DNA of 64,000 nt from an uncultured Clostridia bacterium. GTDB taxonomy: Bacteria; Bacillota; Clostridia; Christensenellales; UBA1242. The notes beneath the pieces were generated by a model. It was given only the letters and a program-made list of their open reading frames with translations. It searched no databases and was not told the origin of the DNA. This document shows, piece after piece, positions 784 to 60,748 of the stretch (the stretch's first letter is position 1; every line of letters begins with the position of its first letter). Where the stretch lies: contig CANSRZ010000002.1 of the NCBI GenBank assembly GCA_947649575.1, positions 68,049-132,048 on the forward strand, written 5' to 3'. The translations under genes were made by a program, and so were the position numbers.

Positions 784-1890
784 TTAAACTCCTGTTTTGA
801 AAATATTAATTAAATAACTAACATAGTCATTGCTATAATTGTTATAAAATTTTGTGATTTCGTTGGAATAATTTGTAGCATATTGAACTTTTGCTGTATA
901 AGCATCCATATTGCAAGAATAATTTACATAATAATCATATAAACTGAATTCTTCCATAGCCTTAGACAGCATTTTTCTTTCGTTTTCAAGTGCATTAAAT
1001 GCATCAAAAATTTTAACAATTGTTGTGTTGTTATATTTCACAACTTTGATTTCTTCGCCAACTTGTTCAGTCACAGCCTCGCCAGTCAAATCAGCAAGCT
1101 CCTCCGCTTTGATTGCTTGCAATGCCATGCTTGAAGTAAATTTGCTTTTTACATTTCTGATGAAACTTACAAAGCTTTGAACTTCTTTTGAGCCACTTAT
1201 GCTGGTGAAATCTTCCATTTCAAGATTAACAATGAGACAATTGTAAAAATCATTTGCGTGATTAAGCATAAGATAATCTCTTAGCATAATTGCTTGTTCA
1301 TTTGTTACAACAGCGGTTGTTTCTTTTAAAGAACTATAATCATTAAAGACTACATCTTTAACTTTTGCAAGTTTTAACGCTACTTCATAAGAAATTTTTA
1401 AAAATGATTTTAAAGACTGAACATATCTTTGTTTTGCACCCTCTGCTACAACAGTTGCAGAACTTACTGTTTTCAAACTAACATATTTTTCAACGCTATC
1501 AATATAAGCATTGTTGAGTTCAGGAATTGAAGTTTCAAGGTCATTAATTACTGCTTTTTTCTCGTTTGAAATATCTTCAAGAGCGCTTATTCTTTCCAAA
1601 TCTTGATAATAATTTTTTATAAAGTTCATTGGAATAATCATGCTTTGATTATAATACCCATAAGTTCCATCATTGAGATACTCAGTCAAAACATAATCGC
1701 TTGCGACTCCATTAACAAGAGACGCTGTAAACATCCCATTTGTTTTGTTGTCTTGTTCAACTTTTTCAATAAATTGCGTCAATCCCTCATAGGCGTCAAC
1801 CTTTTCAGGCTTTTTCCCGCAGGCAAACATAGTCGCACTAAATACGCACAATAAGAGGCAAACTATAATTTTACTTAAATATTTTCTCAT
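784..1890 (-). CDS. Lipoprotein of unknown function
   Basis: 368 aa. Signal peptide with lipobox (..SATMFAC|GKK). ATGA overlap with the upstream ORF. No enzymatic motifs recognised. Confidence 0.7.
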   Translation of the reverse strand: MRKYLSKIIVCLLLCVFSATMFACGKKPEKVDAYEGLTQFIEKVEQDNKTNGMFTASLVNGVASDYVLTEYLNDGTYGYYNQSMIIPMNFIKNYYQDLERISALEDISNEKKAVINDLETSIPELNNAYIDSVEKYVSLKTVSSATVVAEGAKQRYVQSLKSFLKISYEVALKLAKVKDVVFNDYSSLKETTAVVTNEQAIMLRDYLMLNHANDFYNCLIVNLEMEDFTSISGSKEVQSFVSFIRNVKSKFTSSMALQAIKAEELADLTGEAVTEQVGEEIKVVKYNNTTIVKIFDAFNALENERKMLSKAMEEFSLYDYYVNYSCNMDAYTAKVQYATNYSNEITKFYNNYSNDYVSYLINIFKTGV

Positions 1891-8384: not shown

Positions 8385-11300
8385 CTATTTGCTAGCCTTT
8401 TCAATTTCTTTGACTATTGAACTGATAACTGCCGTTGGATTATGCCACCAATCACGGCTCCAAACGCGCATAACTTTCCAGCCTTTTGATTTCAAGAATT
8501 GATTTCTAAACACATCGCGCTCTAAAACTGAATTTGACGATTTTGTCACTTCCTCATCGGTTTCAATTCCTAAAAGATATTTATCCTTTTTCTTGTCATA
8601 AACAGCAATAGAAATCTTGCTGTTAGAATTGCCCAAGTTAAGGTCTGTTTTATAGCCCAATTTATTAAGTTTTTCAGCAATCTGGTTTTCAATAGGAAGC
8701 AGGCTTAATAATCTTGGCTTTGTCATAACGCTTGTGCCAAAACTATTTAAAATTGTTTTAACCTCTTCTGTATTGCCATTAGAAACCGCTCTTACATAAG
8801 TCAAATAGCTACGCAAAAGTTTTGGTCCAACATGCTTAGCAGAATCAACTTTAAGTTCTTCTGGCTCTATGCTTGTAACAACATAAATTTTTTGTTTAGC
8901 ACGAGTAATTGCAACATTCAATCTATTTTCGCCACCCTCGTTTGAAAGCGAGCCAAATGTTGCATTAACTTTGCCAAACTCATTTTTAGCATATCCAATT
9001 GAGAAGATAATTATGTCACGCTCATCACCTTGAACATTTTCAAGATTCTTTACAAACAAGCTTACATCTTCACCGTTTTCAACACGATTGCATTCTTTTA
9101 AATAAAGATTTCTGAATTCAACGTCTTCAAAACATTTTTGCTCAATAAGTTCTTCAATACAGTTTTCTTGCTCAACGTTAAATGTGATGACCCCTATTGT
9201 TTCTTTATTCTTGCGGGTTTTGAAAATAGTCTTTATCAACTCGACAACACGTTTGGCTTCTGTTTCATTTCTACGATCTCTCCAAACGCCAGGCACAAGC
9301 ACTCTTTCAATCGGCTTATGTTTGATATTTTTTGAAACATTTGGAGCAATTTGCAAACTCCCAGAATAGAAAGCCTTATTTGAGAAATCAATAAGTTCCT
9401 CATTTTTACTTCTATAGTGATAAGTAATATTTGAGCTTGAATATCTTGAAACCGCCAAATCAAGCAAAGACTCCACTTCAAGCGCAGCCTGAGTTGTATA
9501 ATCAAGGTCATCTTCCACGCCTGCACCCATATAGCGTTTCATAAATGTAGTTGTTGGACGAAGCTGCTTTGCATCACCCGCAACAACAATTCGATTGCCT
9601 CTATAAATTGACGGAATAGTGTTTTCAATAAACACCTGAGAAGCCTCATCAAACAAAACTATATCAAACAAATTTCGCTTTAGTGGCAAAATTGAAGAAA
9701 CATTTTCAGGCGACAACAGCCAGCAAGGGAAAAGCTTGAAGAGATAATCACCATAAACTTCCGTTGTTTTTCTGATAGACCAGAAGTTCTGCTTTTTTGC
9801 AATTTGATAAAGATAATCTTTGCTTGCAGTGCTTCCGTCAATCATCTTTTTATATTCTTCATTAAATGTCTGCATAGCAATTTTCTTGCTTACTTCATTC
9901 AATTGTGCTTTAAGGCTAACAACTCTTGCTCTGATGTTTTCAAAGTCAACAGTGGCAGACAAAATGCTGTGTTTTTCCTCCTCACACTTAACAATTTCGT
10001 GATAAATTCTAACAGGCAAAACTGCTTTAAGCACTGCCATAAATTTAGGGAAAGTGCTTCCGTTTTCATAAGCAAAATCAAGCACATACTTTTGATTTTC
10101 ATCCAAGTTTTTAAGAATTCTGTTTGTGTCGCTAAGTTTAACATAATTTTCAACCGCCCACAAAAGCAAGCGTAAAATTTGATTATTGCCGTTAAGCAAG
10201 CCCTCAACTGCAAGAAGATATCCACTTTCTGTTAAAATATTTTGCAAGAAAGTGTAATCTTGAAGATATTCGTCAACCGCTTGCAAGGTTTCTTTAACCT
10301 CTTTTTTAACAATGCTTTCTTTTCTAAGCATATTGATTTTAGCAAACGGATAAAGTGGAAAAACAAAACAACTTGTTTTCAAAAAGTTTTCTTGCTTTGG
10401 ATATTCATATTTAGCAATCAATTTGATAAGAGCGTTGCTGTTTATATCGTTTTTAACTTCGTTATAATATGTCAAAACCTGTCTTGCATATTTGTATTTT
10501 TGCGTGTCGAACAATGCTCGTCTTGAAGCAAACAATCTTTGAAGTTTAGCCTGAGATTCAGCCACAACATGCACGCTTAAATTTTCTTTCAAGGCGTCAA
10601 CAAAAGGATTTTTCTTTTTCTCTTCAACAAAGTTGAAATAAAGTTCTGCCTTATTTTTCTCTTCCAATATACTGAGTGCCGAAACAAGCTCTTGATAATT
10701 TAAAGACATGATTTTTTTGTCTTTTTGCATTTCTTTATAAAGTGCATATTCTGTGCTTTTCTTGCCAATCTTATAAGAATTGTAATACATTTCTTGAAGT
10801 GAAAGCCCGAACTCTGTTTTTTCATTCAAGCAGTTTGAAATAGTATTAAGGTTTTCTATTTCATAATTTAAACGCTTTTCAAGGTCAACATATTCTTTAT
10901 ACAACTTTTCATCATAAGAAGATTTCATCACTTTTTCATGAAAGTCTTGACAACGCTTATAAAATTCGTGCTTCTCTTTCTCGGCGTCAACAATAAACAT
11001 TGCCTTTTCGTTAAGATTTGAAAGACGATTATAAACAACTTCCAATGCCGCTTTCTTTTGAGAAACAACAAGCACTTTTTTGTTCTTGCAAATAGCATCC
11101 GCAATCACATTAACAATTGTTTGGCTCTTTCCTGTTCCAGGAGGTCCATAAATCACCATATTGCCTTTCTCGTTAACATTTCTCACAACTTGCTCTTGCG
11201 CATAGTCAACGTTATTGATAAGGAACAAATCATTGCATTTGGTCTGTTTATGCTTGATTTTGCCTGCATTTAAAAGTTCATTGATAGAATCATTTGTAAG

Positions 11301-12137
11301 ATGTTTCTTTTCAAGCGCTGAGTAATCTTGATAAATGGAGTTTGCCAAACTGCATCTTGAAAGCAAACATAAATTTTTAACTTCAAGAGTATTTGCCGTT
11401 CCTGGCTCGCCAAATTTATTGAATGAATAAAGTTTTTTGTCGTTTTTATAAGCTATCTTTATGCCAAATTCTTTAAGATAGTCAATCAAGCCTTGGATAG
11501 AGCCAAATCTTGCTTTGATTGAAGAAAACTCCATTTCCATATCTTGTAAATTGAGGTGCTTGCTGTTTGCAATTGCAAGCATAAGCGCTTTATTAAGTTG
11601 GATTTGCTCGCCATATTTCAAGCAAATATTGATATTAGAGTCATCCAAAACATCAATCTCAACAGGGAACATCAACAGCGGAGCTTTGAATGCCAAATCG
11701 CGCACATTGCCATACACAAAAGGATAGCACAAGAATAGTTCATATCTGCCTGTTTCTTTTTCAATCTCTTCAATTTCACGTTTAAGGGTTTTTAAGTTAT
11801 TGCCCTCTTGCTCGTAAACTTTTTTGATAAAATTACGTTTTTCATTTTCATATTTTTGCTTTTCACTATCATCGCTGAAAGTTTTGGCAGGATATTTTGC
11901 AGAAACATTGTTTGCGCTTGCAATCAAATCTTTCATGCTTTTGCTGAAAATGTTGAAAGGAACTGACTTTCCACTCATTAAGATATCCAAAAATTCATCA
12001 GTTTTTTCACCGTTGCAAAACAAAATACGACCTATGTCATAGCCGTTTTTCTTGTTAAAACTTTTCAGATAAAGGCTTCTGTTTTTTCCGCTTATTTCAA
12101 TAAGTCTTTCTTTGTAATATGTATAAATACTTTTCAT
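8385..12137 (-). CDS. Large SF1 (Upf1-like) helicase with DUF4011-like N-terminus and C-terminal Vsr/DUF559-like PD-(D/E)xK nuclease module (Hhe-like)
   Basis: 1250 aa. Motifs: YGPPGTGKSQT (Walker A), FDEASQ, YHYRS, VQGDERD, RLNVAITRAK. C-terminus: ISIAVYD..LGIETDE..RDVFRNQFLKSKGWKVMRVWSRDWW. RBS is GAGG 7 nt upstream. Confidence 0.85.
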   Translation of the reverse strand: MKSIYTYYKERLIEISGKNRSLYLKSFNKKNGYDIGRILFCNGEKTDEFLDILMSGKSVPFNIFSKSMKDLIASANNVSAKYPAKTFSDDSEKQKYENEKRNFIKKVYEQEGNNLKTLKREIEEIEKETGRYELFLCYPFVYGNVRDLAFKAPLLMFPVEIDVLDDSNINICLKYGEQIQLNKALMLAIANSKHLNLQDMEMEFSSIKARFGSIQGLIDYLKEFGIKIAYKNDKKLYSFNKFGEPGTANTLEVKNLCLLSRCSLANSIYQDYSALEKKHLTNDSINELLNAGKIKHKQTKCNDLFLINNVDYAQEQVVRNVNEKGNMVIYGPPGTGKSQTIVNVIADAICKNKKVLVVSQKKAALEVVYNRLSNLNEKAMFIVDAEKEKHEFYKRCQDFHEKVMKSSYDEKLYKEYVDLEKRLNYEIENLNTISNCLNEKTEFGLSLQEMYYNSYKIGKKSTEYALYKEMQKDKKIMSLNYQELVSALSILEEKNKAELYFNFVEEKKKNPFVDALKENLSVHVVAESQAKLQRLFASRRALFDTQKYKYARQVLTYYNEVKNDINSNALIKLIAKYEYPKQENFLKTSCFVFPLYPFAKINMLRKESIVKKEVKETLQAVDEYLQDYTFLQNILTESGYLLAVEGLLNGNNQILRLLLWAVENYVKLSDTNRILKNLDENQKYVLDFAYENGSTFPKFMAVLKAVLPVRIYHEIVKCEEEKHSILSATVDFENIRARVVSLKAQLNEVSKKIAMQTFNEEYKKMIDGSTASKDYLYQIAKKQNFWSIRKTTEVYGDYLFKLFPCWLLSPENVSSILPLKRNLFDIVLFDEASQVFIENTIPSIYRGNRIVVAGDAKQLRPTTTFMKRYMGAGVEDDLDYTTQAALEVESLLDLAVSRYSSSNITYHYRSKNEELIDFSNKAFYSGSLQIAPNVSKNIKHKPIERVLVPGVWRDRRNETEAKRVVELIKTIFKTRKNKETIGVITFNVEQENCIEELIEQKCFEDVEFRNLYLKECNRVENGEDVSLFVKNLENVQGDERDIIIFSIGYAKNEFGKVNATFGSLSNEGGENRLNVAITRAKQKIYVVTSIEPEELKVDSAKHVGPKLLRSYLTYVRAVSNGNTEEVKTILNSFGTSVMTKPRLLSLLPIENQIAEKLNKLGYKTDLNLGNSNSKISIAVYDKKKDKYLLGIETDEEVTKSSNSVLERDVFRNQFLKSKGWKVMRVWSRDWWHNPTAVISSIVKEIEKASK

Positions 12138-55619: not shown

Positions 55620-56747
55620 TCACACTTTTAGGTTTAAGGTTGCAACTACGCTTTCAACAGCTTCTTTTGCCTTTGCAATTGAAAAGTGTGTGTACGTGTT
55701 GTTTGTTATATTTATATTAGAGTGCCCCATCATTTTACTTCTTGTAGATAAGTCTATGCCTGTTTCAAAGCAAAGTTGGTTAAAATTATGTCTTAAGTCA
55801 TGGAATCTCATATTTATACCAAATTCAGATTTTATAAAATCATGAAATTTGTGTGTAAGATAAGATGGGGTTATGTTTCCTTGAAATATATTATCGCACA
55901 CGACATTGCTATTCAGGTTTTTATTAAGTTCCCTATGTGCTATCAGTTCTTGCTTTAAAAATTCAGGCATAACGAGTCTTCGTTTACTTGTTTTTGTTTT
56001 TAGTCGATTTTTGAATTGTGTTTTGCCATTTTCTTCATAGGCAGAATGTGTCAAGTATATAAGGTTATTGTTAAAGTCAATATCATCCCACGTTAAAGCT
56101 AATACTTCTCCTCGTCTTGGATCCATTAAAAGAGAAATAAGTGTAGGTATATAAAGATTATAACAATCTCTCTTTAAAGCGAATAAGATTTCTGATAATT
56201 GATCTGTTGAAAGTATTGTAGGCTCAAACTCAACATCGTCTTCCATATATTCTATTTTTTTAATTCTGTTGTATTCAAGGATGTCTTGAGATACAGCCCA
56301 ATTTAACACAGTGTTTAAAACTTTTACATATTCCTGGACAGTTCCCTTTTTTAATCGTTGTCCTTTCTTATGTGGATTATCAAGTTGCTCTAGTTGGTTA
56401 ACCCAATCTTGTGTATTTCTAGTGTTTATATTTTTGGCTCTAACATTGCCCCAGTAAGCAAGGACTTTATTTGAATATGATTCTTTATGTTTTTTAGTTG
56501 TTGGCGAAAATTTCTTTGATTTGGCATCCATATAAAGTTTATATAATTCGCCAAAAGTATAATCAGAATGTTGATTTATTCCTTGCTCAAATTCTTCTTC
56601 AAAAGTGTTGGCAAAAATCTTTGCCGCTGCTATAGTTGGGATGTTAGATTTCTGTTTAGTCTTTCTTTTGCCAAATTCATCAAAGTCACTCCATGTTCGC
56701 ACTTTGTATTTACCATTTGGCAACTTTTCTATTGTTGATGATGGCAT
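55620..56747 (-). CDS. int: Prophage tyrosine integrase
   Basis: 375 aa. N-terminal KLPNGKYKVR arm-binding type, RRGEVLAL, RFHDLRHNF, MGHSNINITNNTYTH. Confidence 0.92.
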   Translation of the reverse strand: MPSSTIEKLPNGKYKVRTWSDFDEFGKRKTKQKSNIPTIAAAKIFANTFEEEFEQGINQHSDYTFGELYKLYMDAKSKKFSPTTKKHKESYSNKVLAYWGNVRAKNINTRNTQDWVNQLEQLDNPHKKGQRLKKGTVQEYVKVLNTVLNWAVSQDILEYNRIKKIEYMEDDVEFEPTILSTDQLSEILFALKRDCYNLYIPTLISLLMDPRRGEVLALTWDDIDFNNNLIYLTHSAYEENGKTQFKNRLKTKTSKRRLVMPEFLKQELIAHRELNKNLNSNVVCDNIFQGNITPSYLTHKFHDFIKSEFGINMRFHDLRHNFNQLCFETGIDLSTRSKMMGHSNINITNNTYTHFSIAKAKEAVESVVATLNLKV

Positions 56748-56757
56748 GATCTACTCC

Positions 56758-57174
56758 TTACATAACATCTTTTAGAGATTTTATTTTTATTTTATAATAT
56801 TTTTTACGAGTTGTTTTAATTTGAATATCTATTGAATCTTCTTTTTTAATGTGTGGGCATTTAAAACTTACAACAATACTTTCATAGCTATTGAGATATT
56901 TATAAGTATATATGTGTTGGTGTAACTCGCGATTTAGTAAAACACTTTGATTATTAATATAAATATCATTTATAGTTATAGGTTTATCGCTTAAGTTAGA
57001 TATTTGTGCCACAATTGAATAAATACTACTTTCTAAATTTACATCAACTCTAATAATTTCAAATTGTATTTTATTTTTAAAAATGTTAATCAATAGAGCA
57101 ATAAATGGTGGAAATGCAAAGATTATGGTGCAAGTCAATGAAATTGTTGAAATTATATCAGCAGTAGACATCAC
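56758..57174 (-). CDS. Lysogeny-module membrane-anchored protein (possible superinfection exclusion)
   Basis: 138 aa. One N-terminal TM helix. ATGA overlap with the repressor gene stop. Confidence 0.6.
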   Translation of the reverse strand: MMSTADIISTISLTCTIIFAFPPFIALLINIFKNKIQFEIIRVDVNLESSIYSIVAQISNLSDKPITINDIYINNQSVLLNRELHQHIYTYKYLNSYESIVVSFKCPHIKKEDSIDIQIKTTRKKYYKIKIKSLKDVM

Positions 57175-57779
57175 AAACTCCTCCTAATTTCAACTGCAAC
57201 ACCTATAATGCGGACAGGTGTGTCGATTATCTGTTGGTTTGTATAGAATGCAGGTTTAAAATCGCTATAAGGGTTTTCTGGTAATATCCAAATGCCATTG
57301 GGCTCTTTTTTTATGCGCTTCAAAGTTGCATCAAAGCCGTTTATCATAACAACACAAATTTTACCACTATCAGCATCATCTTGCTGTTTGACAATTACTA
57401 CATCGCCATCATTAATAATAGGATGCATACTAACGCCTTTAACCTTAAGTGCAAAGTATTCTCCACGACTTGCCATATCTTCTGATATTTCCTCATAGTC
57501 GAGTATATCTTCAATCGCCTCAATAGGTATGCCAGCTGGAATAACACCAAGAACAGGTATTTTAATGCCTTTTTGCTTTTGTATATTGCCATTATATAAA
57601 GATGCTGGTTCTATATTTATAGCTTTGCAAATGTTCTCCAATGTGACTGAAGAAACATTCTTCTCTCCACTTATAATCTTATACACATGTTGTCTTGAAA
57701 TGCCTGCTCTTTCTGCAACCCTTGAAATAGGCATTTTACTTTCCGCAATTGCTTTTGCGAGTAGTTTGTTGATACTCAT
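57171..57779 (-). CDS. CI/LexA-like repressor (XRE HTH + S24 peptidase)
   Basis: 202 aa. HTH ..SRVAERAGISRQHVYKIISGE.., catalytic GVSM (Ser) and ATLKR (Lys). Confidence 0.9.
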   Translation of the reverse strand: MSINKLLAKAIAESKMPISRVAERAGISRQHVYKIISGEKNVSSVTLENICKAINIEPASLYNGNIQKQKGIKIPVLGVIPAGIPIEAIEDILDYEEISEDMASRGEYFALKVKGVSMHPIINDGDVVIVKQQDDADSGKICVVMINGFDATLKRIKKEPNGIWILPENPYSDFKPAFYTNQQIIDTPVRIIGVAVEIRRSL

Positions 57780-57920
57780 TTCCCACCTCTGTCAATTAAA
57801 GTTTACATTATAAATAAAAATTTTTCAATATTTTTTTTAAAAATATGTAATTTTTAGTTGACAAATAATTTTTTGTATGGTAATCTAAAAGCGACAATAA
57901 AAGGAAAGGAGGTGAAAAGT

Positions 57921-58100
57921 TTGGTTTACAACAAATCTGAAATAGCCAGAAAAACAGGACTTTCAAGGGTGGCAGTCACAAATATCTTGAATGGTAAACA
58001 AAAAAATCCAAAGTTAGATACTTTGGAAAGACTAGCTGAAACAATGGATTGCAGTATTGATGAATTAAAAACCAAAATCAAAACTGACGCAGTGTCTTAA
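57921..58100 (+). CDS. Cro-like XRE-family HTH protein
   Basis: About 59 aa from TTG 57921 (GGAGGTG 6-8 nt upstream). The ORF-track start at 57858 is the TTG of a TTGACA -35 box. SEIARKTGLSRVAVTNILNGKQ. Confidence 0.75.
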   Translation: MVYNKSEIARKTGLSRVAVTNILNGKQKNPKLDTLERLAETMDCSIDELKTKIKTDAVS

Positions 58101-58112
58101 AAGGAGGGGAGA

Positions 58113-58265
58113 ATGAAAGATTATACTATATCAAAAAAAGAATTAAAAGATGCTTTAATTGAACTAGATTATTCAGAATTAAAAGGGTTAGCTTTAGAAC
58201 ATACAAAATCGTTAGTCAAACTAATATTAGAAAAATCAGAATTTTACACCTTTTTGTTCAAGTAG
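58113..58265 (+). CDS. Small phage ORF (50 aa)
   Basis: AAGGAGGGGAGA-ATG. MKDYTISKKELKDALIELDY... Its 3' end overlaps the convergent 211-aa gene. Confidence 0.4.
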   Translation: MKDYTISKKELKDALIELDYSELKGLALEHTKSLVKLILEKSEFYTFLFK

Positions 58266-58871
58266 TTTTTTGGTTTTGTAGGAAGAATATTTTGCTGTAA
58301 ATAAAGTAATAAGATGCTCAACAGAAGCAATCATTTCATCAAGAGTAAATTCACTATCCCTTGCAGGGTGAACTTCATCATTGCGAATGAATTTTGAAAA
58401 TGTCAATTGAACTACAGCATCATCAAAATCTTTTAGTAATTTAATATTTTTACTAAAACTGTAAGTTGGAGTTTCTCCTTGAACTTTTACTAAATAATCA
58501 TACACTAATTGTTCAATTGCTTTACTTAATCCTATTCCAATTAAATTATTTAAACCAAAATTTGAAGCTTGATAGGTTTGTTGATATATTTCACAAAACT
58601 TGGGTGACAGTTCTTCAATCAATGGCGGTAATAAGATTTTTTCAGTAGAGGGAATTAAGTTTCTATAATAACCCGCTTGTTCTTCCTTACAAATAAGTGA
58701 ATATTCGTGGCAGCGAGGACATTCAACAAGAAAATTTAATCGATGATGGCTAAGTTTACCATATTGAATAGTAAACTCTACATCATGATTGCAATGAGGA
58801 CAAAGAGAAAGAAAATTTTCTTCGTAATATCTCTTAGTTTCATTAAATTCAGTGACATATTCTAGTTTCAT
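58236..58871 (-). CDS. Zn-ribbon + DUF4145-like domain protein with HEPN-type Rx4H motif (prophage moron, candidate Abi/exclusion effector)
   Basis: 211 aa. CPHCNH...(21 aa)...CPRCHE ribbon. C-terminal helical domain LSKAIEQLVYDYL...FIRNDEVHPARD. Transcribed opposite to all surrounding early genes. Confidence 0.7.
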   Translation of the reverse strand: MKLEYVTEFNETKRYYEENFLSLCPHCNHDVEFTIQYGKLSHHRLNFLVECPRCHEYSLICKEEQAGYYRNLIPSTEKILLPPLIEELSPKFCEIYQQTYQASNFGLNNLIGIGLSKAIEQLVYDYLVKVQGETPTYSFSKNIKLLKDFDDAVVQLTFSKFIRNDEVHPARDSEFTLDEMIASVEHLITLFTAKYSSYKTKKLLEQKGVKF

Positions 58872-58935
58872 TTATGACTCCTTTTCTAAGGAGTATAGCA
58901 AAACAAAATTAAAAAGTCAACAAGGAGATGAAATT

Positions 58936-60034: not shown

Positions 60035-60748
60035 ATGGAAGAAATAAGACTATTAAGACCTGAAGATATTGATGTAAAAGTTAAAAAAGTTATTGATGGC
60101 AAAGTGTTGCTCTTATTGTATAAAACATCACGAGTTGACATGGCAATCTTGGATGAAGTGTTTGGGGTTGAAAACTGGTGTGATGATTACAAAGAGGTTA
60201 AAGGTAATCTATACTGTGGTATAGGTGTTCGCACTGAGAAAACAGAAGACTTTGTTTGGAAATGGGATTGCGGCATTGAAAGCAAAGAAGATGAGGGCAA
60301 CCAAAAGAAAGGTGAGGCAAGTGATGCTTTCAAAAGAGCTGGTTTTAAACTTGGTATTGGCAGAGAGTTATATACCGCGCCAGTAATATGGGTAGATGCG
60401 GAAACAGTTTCAGATGGAAAAATGTTCAAGTTGAAAGATAGATATGCGAGTTATTCAGTAAATGAAATTGAATATAGCACTAATCGCGCAATCTCAAAAT
60501 TGGTTATCGTAGACAAACATGGCAATCAAGTTTATCCAAAAACAATGGGCAACAAGCAACCTGCTGAGCCGCCAAAGTCACCAGAAAAGATTATATGTGA
60601 ACGCTGCAGAAAAGAAATTGTAGGGCGTTCAGTAAACGGCTCATTTAGAACACCAGAGCAAATTAAAGAGAGTTGCAAAGGTTTATGCTTAGAGTGCTAT
60701 AAAGAAGAAACTAAACTATTGCCAAATAACGAAGTGGAGGTTAAATAA
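60035..60748 (+). CDS. Rad52/Sak-type single-strand annealing protein with C-terminal Zn-ribbon
   Basis: 237 aa. ..NLYCGIGV...GEASDAFKRAGFKLGIGRELY.. The tail carries CERCRKE...CLECYKE. Confidence 0.75.
   Translation: MEEIRLLRPEDIDVKVKKVIDGKVLLLLYKTSRVDMAILDEVFGVENWCDDYKEVKGNLYCGIGVRTEKTEDFVWKWDCGIESKEDEGNQKKGEASDAFKRAGFKLGIGRELYTAPVIWVDAETVSDGKMFKLKDRYASYSVNEIEYSTNRAISKLVIVDKHGNQVYPKTMGNKQPAEPPKSPEKIICERCRKEIVGRSVNGSFRTPEQIKESCKGLCLECYKEETKLLPNNEVEVK

Follow-up and report, generated by a model that had tools for sequence, protein, structure and literature searches.

We propose that a small gene carried antisense within the early region of a prophage, in DNA from an uncultured Clostridia bacterium, probably encodes a RAZR-like single-protein abortive-infection nuclease of a temperate phage. 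The gene occupies 58236..58871 (stop codon included) on the minus strand of the window, by which we mean the whole 64,000-nucleotide stretch of DNA that was analysed, and its product joins an N-terminal zinc ribbon to a C-terminal HEPN domain of the DUF4145-like kind. A single-gene abortive-infection role had already been put forward in the sequence-only reading that preceded this work and, by analogy with RAZR, it still appears to be the most likely function. RAZR (PMC13017515), Tha (PMC11087260) and HepS (PMC13043305) may serve as precedents for prophage HEPN proteins that act in this way. The same reading had supposed the fusion to be uncharacterised, which is incorrect. A Zn-ribbon + DUF4145 fusion appears already in Table 1 of the HEPN survey by Anantharaman et al. 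in 2013, which also records a DUF4145 presence in dsDNA viruses (PMC3710099), PD-T7-4 ('Zn finger-HEPN') was shown in 2022 to defend E. coli against phage (PMC9519451), and its mechanism was solved in 2026 under the name RAZR, a ring-activated zinc-finger RNase (PMC13017515). The novelty of the present case is therefore modest.

The ORF begins with an ATG and encodes 211 residues, and its assignment draws on the ORF list, the sequence and the homologs. The identical protein was called on the seven contigs examined, yielding the same 211-aa product each time. An exhaustive HMMER search with the window protein as query recovered 725 cluster representatives at E<=1e-3 (33 at E<=1e-10), among which the four cysteines of the ribbon, N164 and H168 show little or no variation. 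These observations confirm that 58236..58871 is a real gene and not a chance ORF. The motifs quoted when the ORF was originally described are all found in the sequence, namely CPHC at residues 24-27, CPRC at 51-54, LSKAIEQLVYDYL at 115-127 and FIRNDEVHPARD at 161-172. A word-indexed homolog search with the window protein found P0002 alone, a distant relative whose family comprises 553 proteins, some of them named 'DUF4145 domain-containing protein' by NCBI. Megablast of the region against phages gave no match, and neither did a scan of genome contigs with the single window protein.

The N-terminal part of the protein (residues 20-73, 58653..58814 on the minus strand) is a Cys4 zinc ribbon and a putative sensor, as judged from conservation and the structural model. 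The CPHC...CPRC ribbon noticed at the outset is borne out: its cysteines (C24, C27, C51 and C54) are each present in 143-145 of 149 relatives, and in the full-length AF2 model the strands at 34-41, 44-50, 57-63 and 69-73 form a four-stranded ribbon. The family profile weakly matches RPB9/TFIIS-type zinc ribbons, and the RAZR ribbon was itself superposed on a ribbon of this type, 1QYP (PMC13017515). Outside its cysteines, the ribbon is the most variable region of the family, with a mean identity of 22% compared with 42% in the C-terminal domain. Such variability would fit a putative sensor-like N-terminus, as reported for RAZR, in which the ribbon likewise varies most and sets phage specificity (PMC13017515).

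The remainder of the protein (residues 83-206, 58254..58625 on the minus strand) is predicted to be an all-helical HEPN / DUF4145-like domain and a putative RNase effector, on the strength of AF2 modelling, Foldseek comparison and the PF13643 matches of its relatives. The profile search that the sequence-only reading had proposed as a check, against PF13643 and the HEPN clan, gave nothing for the window protein directly: a Pfam scan returned no DUF4145 or HEPN-clan match even at E<=10, only sub-threshold zinc-ribbon noise. NCBIfam gave zinc-ribbon noise or nothing, PADLOC gave no match (with the PD-T7-4 model negative at E<=1), and phmmer against PDB sequences found no match. The relatives tell us more. 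In the 150 listed relatives of the 725 clusters from which we judged the layout, nearly all of 190-250 aa, the common arrangement is CPxC, some 23-30 residues, a second CPxC, a linker that includes P74 and 'LSPxF', and then a helical domain with the consensus motifs 'GxGxRKAxExLxKD' and 'WxGNDETH'. PF13643 was matched individually, at E<=0.01, by 78 of 134 scanned relatives and by 19 of 24 in a smaller set; P0005 and P0012 are named 'DUF4145 domain-containing protein' by NCBI, and P0081 has a precomputed PF13643 match. Thus the suggested DUF4145 identity stands for the family, most scanned members of which score against PF13643 (HEPN clan CL0291) and share with it a ...GN...H core, whereas the window protein itself falls below PF13643 detection and appears to be related to DUF4145 by transitive homology only.

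Structure prediction, the other check proposed for this domain, points the same way. The full-length AF2 model (pLDDT 80.7) shows the ribbon at 34-73 followed by helices, with H168 in a low-confidence loop, and the C-terminal domain modelled alone reaches a pLDDT of 91.8 and a pTM of 0.86. When the domain-only model was compared with the PDB by Foldseek, the top 20 matches were HEPN proteins throughout, whose probabilities reach 0.99 and TM-scores 0.65, though the E-values are weak (>=0.055). They include the HepT toxins 6m6u, 7bxo and 5yep, the HEPN domain of sacsin, ST0689, TT1696, SsR10 and Csm6'; individual values are a probability of 0.99 and TM-scores of 0.60/0.55 for 4nqf_B, and TM-scores of 0.58/0.63 for 1wol and 0.59/0.65 for 2q00_B. 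The model therefore predicts the four-helix up-and-down bundle of HEPN proteins. The PDB entry of RAZR itself was absent from the top 50 structural matches, and the top viral match was U3PE05, a protein of 236 aa, equal in length to phiRS7 Orf55.

The gene sits at the left end of a prophage, which is marked by a tyrosine integrase (55620..56747, minus strand; from the ORF list and tblastn to annotated phage integrases). This is followed on the same strand by a 138-aa protein (56758..57174; from the ORF list) and a cI-like repressor with HTH_3 and Peptidase_S24 domains (57171..57779; from the ORF list and the identical contigs). On the plus strand, a cro-like HTH gene of 62 aa (about 57912..58100; HTH_3 and HTH_26 matches in the identical contigs) opens the rightward early operon, and a 50-aa ORF of this early lytic operon (58113..58265; from the ORF list) runs convergently into the Zn-ribbon gene, the 3' ends of the two overlapping by 30 nt. 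To the right of the Zn-ribbon gene, plus-strand early genes continue uninterrupted to at least 63862 and include Sipho_Gp157, SSB and DUF6291. As to the host, its TypA has as best named relative that of a 'Clostridiales bacterium' MAG (87% identity), in keeping with an uncultured member of the Bacillota. All of the remaining minus-strand ORFs between cro (about 57912) and 63862 are nested wholly within longer plus-strand ORFs, and so the Zn-ribbon gene is the only credible opposite-strand gene of the early region, which makes its earlier description as such, convergent with a cro-proximal small ORF, a fair one.

The gene has an AAGGAG ribosome-binding site 6 nt upstream of its ATG (58883..58878, minus strand; read from the sequence) and, according to a consensus scan, a predicted sigma-70-like promoter of its own, TTGACT-17 nt-TGcTATACT (58920..58892, minus strand), which matches 10 of 12 positions, has an extended -10 element and was the top score in the regional scan. 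The first candidate stop for the minus-strand transcript is a terminator-like hairpin with a T-run at 58027..58007 (58007..58027, minus strand; a consensus match only) inside the cro-like CDS, so that the transcripts from the two strands would overlap across the small ORF and the 3' end of cro. On the plus strand, our consensus terminator scan predicted no terminator between cro and the Zn-ribbon gene; transcripts of the early lytic operon would therefore have to pass through the gene head-on. The GC content is about 30% throughout the lysogeny module and so carries no compositional moron signature. Several other features are those of a moron, namely a predicted promoter of its own, an orientation independent of the flanking operon and flanking genes that differ from those around the homolog in L171. 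With its antisense placement and a predicted promoter that is conserved with L171, the gene answers well to its earlier description as an antisense prophage moron.

Placement of this kind recurs in the family. Relatives are encoded at 397 loci in IMG/VR and at a minimum of 436 loci in species-representative genomes from Bacillota, Bacteroidota, Proteobacteria, Saccharibacteria, Acidobacteriota and others. Based upon crude gene calls at 77 viral loci, 42 homologs are antisense to both neighbours, 25 are placed where the coding strand changes and 10 run in the same direction as their neighbours. Four annotated phages, Javan331, Javan85, phiRS7 and H1-Guo, carry the homolog on the strand opposite to that of the lytic genes around it. 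The L171 and Javan331 homologs occupy a slot equivalent to that of the window gene. That of L171 (P0131) is the closest relative, at 40% identity, and there the order is cI, cro, a small ORF (30-nt overlap), the antisense gene and a 54-aa ORF. Upstream of P0131 we find TTGACT-17-TATACT, with hexamers and spacing as in the window, although the flanking small genes are unrelated. More generally, of 60 distinct regions upstream of viral homologs 67% contain a sigma-70-like site (>=9/12), compared with 24% for other genes, and TGnTATAAT stands upstream of the homolog in four annotated phages. The survey of similar morons that had been recommended thus found antisense homologs in other phages and an enrichment of promoter-like sites.

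This arrangement also bears on an alternative in which the protein acts as toxin in an addiction or TA-like module that stabilises the prophage, is restrained by the 50-aa ORF or by antisense RNA, and kills cells which lose or mis-express the prophage. HEPN domains are common as TA toxins (PMC3710099), the HepT toxins are the best structural matches of our model, and a convergent small ORF shares 19-30 nt with the 3' end of the gene in the window and in L171, Javan331, Javan85 and phiRS7. However, no homology is detectable among these small ORFs (E=0.29), so that a conserved partner is unsupported, and the neighbours are different at many chromosomal and viral homologs. In addition, the hypervariable ribbon fused to the HEPN domain fits a sensor better than it does a toxin controlled by an antitoxin, and RAZR acts without any partner protein (PMC13017515). 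We therefore regard the addiction module as unlikely and continue to favour a RAZR-like abortive-infection nuclease.

A second alternative, which we hold to be as improbable as the first, is that the protein is a Zn-ribbon DNA- or RNA-binding regulator of the lysis-lysogeny decision, with a helical domain that is no nuclease but a module for oligomerisation or ligand binding. The gene adjoins cI/cro, and the window protein matches PHROG 1305 (E=3e-19), labelled 'DNA binding protein', as is phiRS7 Orf55; this label is, however, an unverified annotation. The full-length model was also weakly like NrdR, which combines a zinc ribbon with a regulatory domain (Foldseek, E=3e-3), but the TM-score is about 0.2 and the likeness comes from the ribbon only, and we place no value on it. 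The links of the relatives to DUF4145 and PD-T7-4, and the spread of the family through many phyla outside prophage switches, are difficult to reconcile with a dedicated switch regulator. The same is true of the conserved residues of the helical domain: E120, D125, N164 and H168, together with an arginine that swaps position, look like an active site, as would befit the abortive-infection nuclease that we prefer.

The arginine requires some explanation. The putative active-site motif R163-N-D-E-V-H168 (58368..58385, minus strand; codons 58385-58383 for R163 and 58370-58368 for H168) was identified from the alignment of relatives and the register of H168 with RAZR H154, and it had been read beforehand as the Rx4H signature of HEPN RNases. 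The motif is present, its histidine recurs in 258 of the 259 full-length relatives, and 142 of 149 relatives have N164, but R163 is not conserved, the position being Gly in 133 of 149 relatives (about 96% of the 259 full-length set). The DUF4145 pattern used in the sequence-only reading, R..GN...H, had been placed out of register: its Arg corresponds to K160 and its Gly to R163, so that R163 does not belong to the conserved residues of the motif. At position 116, within 'GYRKALE', 142 of 149 relatives have Arg, but the window protein has Ser. Across the 259 full-length relatives the two positions covary without exception (Fisher p = 1e-10): 248 combine R116 with G163, five have R116 with A163 or C163, one has R116 with a gap at 163, and five have Gly or Ser at 116 with R163, while none has Arg at both positions and none at neither. 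An NJ tree calls for three or more independent swaps (P0001 with P0131, P0146 with P0166, and P0150), and the closest relative, from L171, is thus also of the swap type. We infer that one Arg guanidinium is indispensable near H168 and that either helix may provide it. The window protein would accordingly belong to a minority type in which a relocated R163 compensates for the loss of R116, giving the classical HEPN Rx4H spacing. The weakest alternative, a degenerate and inactive HEPN relative without R116 or RAZR's R146 that persists as a decoy, scaffold or decaying moron, could appeal to S116, to K160 at the R146 position and to the lack of a direct Pfam or PADLOC match, but is very improbable given that R116 loss is paired with R163 gain in every case and in at least three lineages, which argues for maintained function, that N164, H168, E120, D125 and the four cysteines are intact, and that the ORF is identical on the contigs examined and retains its predicted promoter and RBS.

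We return, then, to the nuclease reading and to how closely the window protein resembles RAZR, which derives from E. coli UMB1727 / Klebsiella (PDB 9Y9C and 9Y6U; PMC9519451, PMC13017515). The two are of similar length (219 and 211 aa) and have a Cys4 ribbon, a short conserved linker and a DUF4145/HEPN domain in that order, with the ribbon the most variable part in both RAZR and the window family; both are single-gene systems on a mobile element, near an integrase. Mutation of either H154 or R146 abolishes defence by RAZR (PMC13017515), and alignment suggests that catalytic H154 is in register with H168. This register comes from a weak match (E=0.15) between the profile of 134 relatives and PDB chain 9y9c_OA, a 219-aa 'DUF4145 domain-containing protein' of the RAZR cryo-EM structure, which is ungapped between profile positions 159-205 and chain residues 137-183 and places the family His on H154 and position 160 on R146. 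In PDB sequence searches 9y9c was reached only with the A3 profile (E=0.15) and not with the A1, C-terminal-only or proteobacterial-subfamily profiles or with two single relatives, and none of the collected relatives showed RAZR-like landmarks in a regex search. The PADLOC PD-T7-4 model was matched by 12 of 134 relatives (best 1.5e-6) but not by P0131, P0132 and eight other near relatives.

There are also differences from RAZR. The window protein has no PD-T7-4 HMM match, and K160 stands in place of R146, a position that in the family is most often A (52%), T (14%) or R (12%), and also S; the arginine of this branch is found instead at 116, or at 163 in the window protein. As a consequence the window Arg has Rx4H spacing and not the R-x7-H of RAZR (R146-x7-H154), to which the DUF4145 pattern R..GN...H, as given in the sequence-only reading, conforms. 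The genetic setting is also different, the window gene being antisense inside the early operon of a Gram-positive-type prophage. Since two features of RAZR, the PD-T7-4 HMM match and an Arg at the R146 position, are not found here, we class the protein as one that would work like RAZR and not as a member of its family; it appears to represent a divergent, phage-rich sister branch.

If the analogy holds, the system may operate as follows. In the lysogen cI would silence the rightward early promoter, so the gene would be transcribed from its own promoter. The variable ribbon may then bind a structural protein of a superinfecting phage; the known triggers of RAZR are ring-shaped phage assemblies such as portal, and the protein forms higher-order oligomers, with D179, D180 and R184 at the oligomer interface, and cleaves ssRNA (PMC13017515). 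Trigger binding would rearrange oligomers into HEPN dimers with a composite active site that includes H168 and R163, and this site would cleave single-stranded cellular and phage RNA, such that translation stops and the infection is aborted. Upon induction of the prophage, early transcription from the cro side would run head-on through the Zn-ribbon gene, and transcriptional interference together with the pairing of sense and antisense RNA could turn the nuclease off and protect the prophage's own lytic cycle, in a manner akin to Tha/Ith (PMC11087260). We infer this shut-off from the gene layout and from the consensus promoter and terminator scans.

Tha, a tail-activated HEPN anti-phage system of Staphylococcus aureus prophages, is informative in this respect. 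This HEPN RNase is encoded by the prophage, is expressed in the lysogen and brings about abortive infection, and it avoids autoimmunity by means of an antisense 'non-contiguous operon' (PMC11087260); a comparable antisense layout is seen at the window gene. Tha differs in being a 301-aa protein whose N-terminal domain is undefined and which lacks a zinc ribbon, and in lying within the cI operon with a dedicated antisense inhibitor gene, ith (PMC11087260), and its sequence shows no detectable relationship to that of the window protein. HepS, from the Salmonella Gifsy-1 prophage, is likewise a single HEPN protein in an accessory slot of a lambdoid early region, which is made constitutively and, once a structural protein of the infecting phage has activated it, cleaves tRNA (PMC13043305). 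It too is without a zinc ribbon, and it uses a canonical R100-x4-H105 in a tetramer and belongs to a separate HEPN family (PMC13043305).

More tentatively, one may combine the arginine swap and the gene placement into a fuller proposal: that the catalytic Arg of this branch is the helix-1 R116 and not a RAZR-type R146, that it has moved at least three times to position 163, thereby restoring Rx4H, and that the head-on placement, with the gene's transcript continuing antisense into cro, acts as a switch that silences the nuclease upon induction and could reinforce lysogeny as well. We offer this as a possibility whose likelihood we judge to be well below that of the abortive-infection role itself. 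If it is true, the branch would provide an example of natural migration of an active-site residue in a defence nuclease.

The basic picture established by RAZR, Tha and HepS is unchanged by this work, the value of which is incremental, and the only new elements are the relocation of the arginine and the conserved antisense placement. Nonetheless, the 397 viral loci indicate that temperate phages commonly carry the RAZR-type architecture, in which a ribbon sensor is fused to a DUF4145/HEPN RNase, and the phage homologs tend toward genes on the opposite strand with a predicted promoter of their own. The R116/R163 swap provides a clean and testable handle on the catalytic Arg of this branch, and the layout of the gene suggests how a prophage may escape its own nuclease.

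The 3′ end of genes of the target type overlaps a small convergent ORF by 19–30 nt in five different phages. In the window, the gene for the 211-aa Zn-ribbon and HEPN/DUF4145-like protein (58236..58871, minus strand) shares 30 nt (58236..58265) with a 50-aa ORF that follows the cro-like gene, and the overlap is again 30 nt (1022..1051) at L171, the locus of a 40%-identical homolog. Among Javan331, Javan85 and phiRS7, it measures 29 nt at two loci (L001 4533..4561 and L004 4341..4369) and 19 nt at the third (L002 3296..3314). When the small ORFs of these five phages were compared, no homology was detectable among them. Approximately 210 nt beyond the target stop codon, at 58007..58027, the minus strand carries a terminator-like hairpin and T-run. 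Because this hairpin falls within the cro-like coding sequence, the target transcript would, as judged from sequence, run antisense to both the small ORF and the 3′ end of cro.

Immediately 5′ of the RBS of the cro-like gene we read a plus-strand site (57858..57886) composed of a perfect −35 hexamer (TTGACA), a 17-nt spacer and TGgTAATCT. This site, which has a poor −10 and was left unscored by the promoter scan, is likely to be the early rightward promoter. Given that predicted position, the 80-aa TTG-start cro ORF is too long, and the true product is 62 aa.

Further downstream, a 237-aa protein with a C-terminal CxxC...CxxC (60035..60748, plus strand), for which the family search returned no match, occupies the slot which in L006 (a contig of matching gene order that encodes an identical target protein) is taken by a 203-aa ERF recombinase (1065..1676). 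Here the single-strand annealing protein has been replaced in mosaic fashion. Elsewhere, the target homolog in Lactiplantibacillus phage H1-Guo (L003 3995..4729) is annotated 'DUF1492 domain-containing protein'. An unrelated neighbour has the identical label, which on the homolog is probably a carry-over error in the deposited record.

Approximately 45 kb away from the prophage, a 1250-aa host protein (8385..12137, minus strand) resembles two anti-phage helicases in NCBIfam, ProA at E=1e-165 and Hhe at E=2e-112, with scores far under the curated cut-offs of both, and its gene is a candidate chromosomal defence gene. Within the prophage, a 138-aa ORF (56758..57174) whose product has a hydrophobic N-terminus sits between integrase and cI on the minus (lysogeny) strand; it had no match in the family search and may be a second accessory gene expressed in the lysogen, for example for superinfection exclusion.
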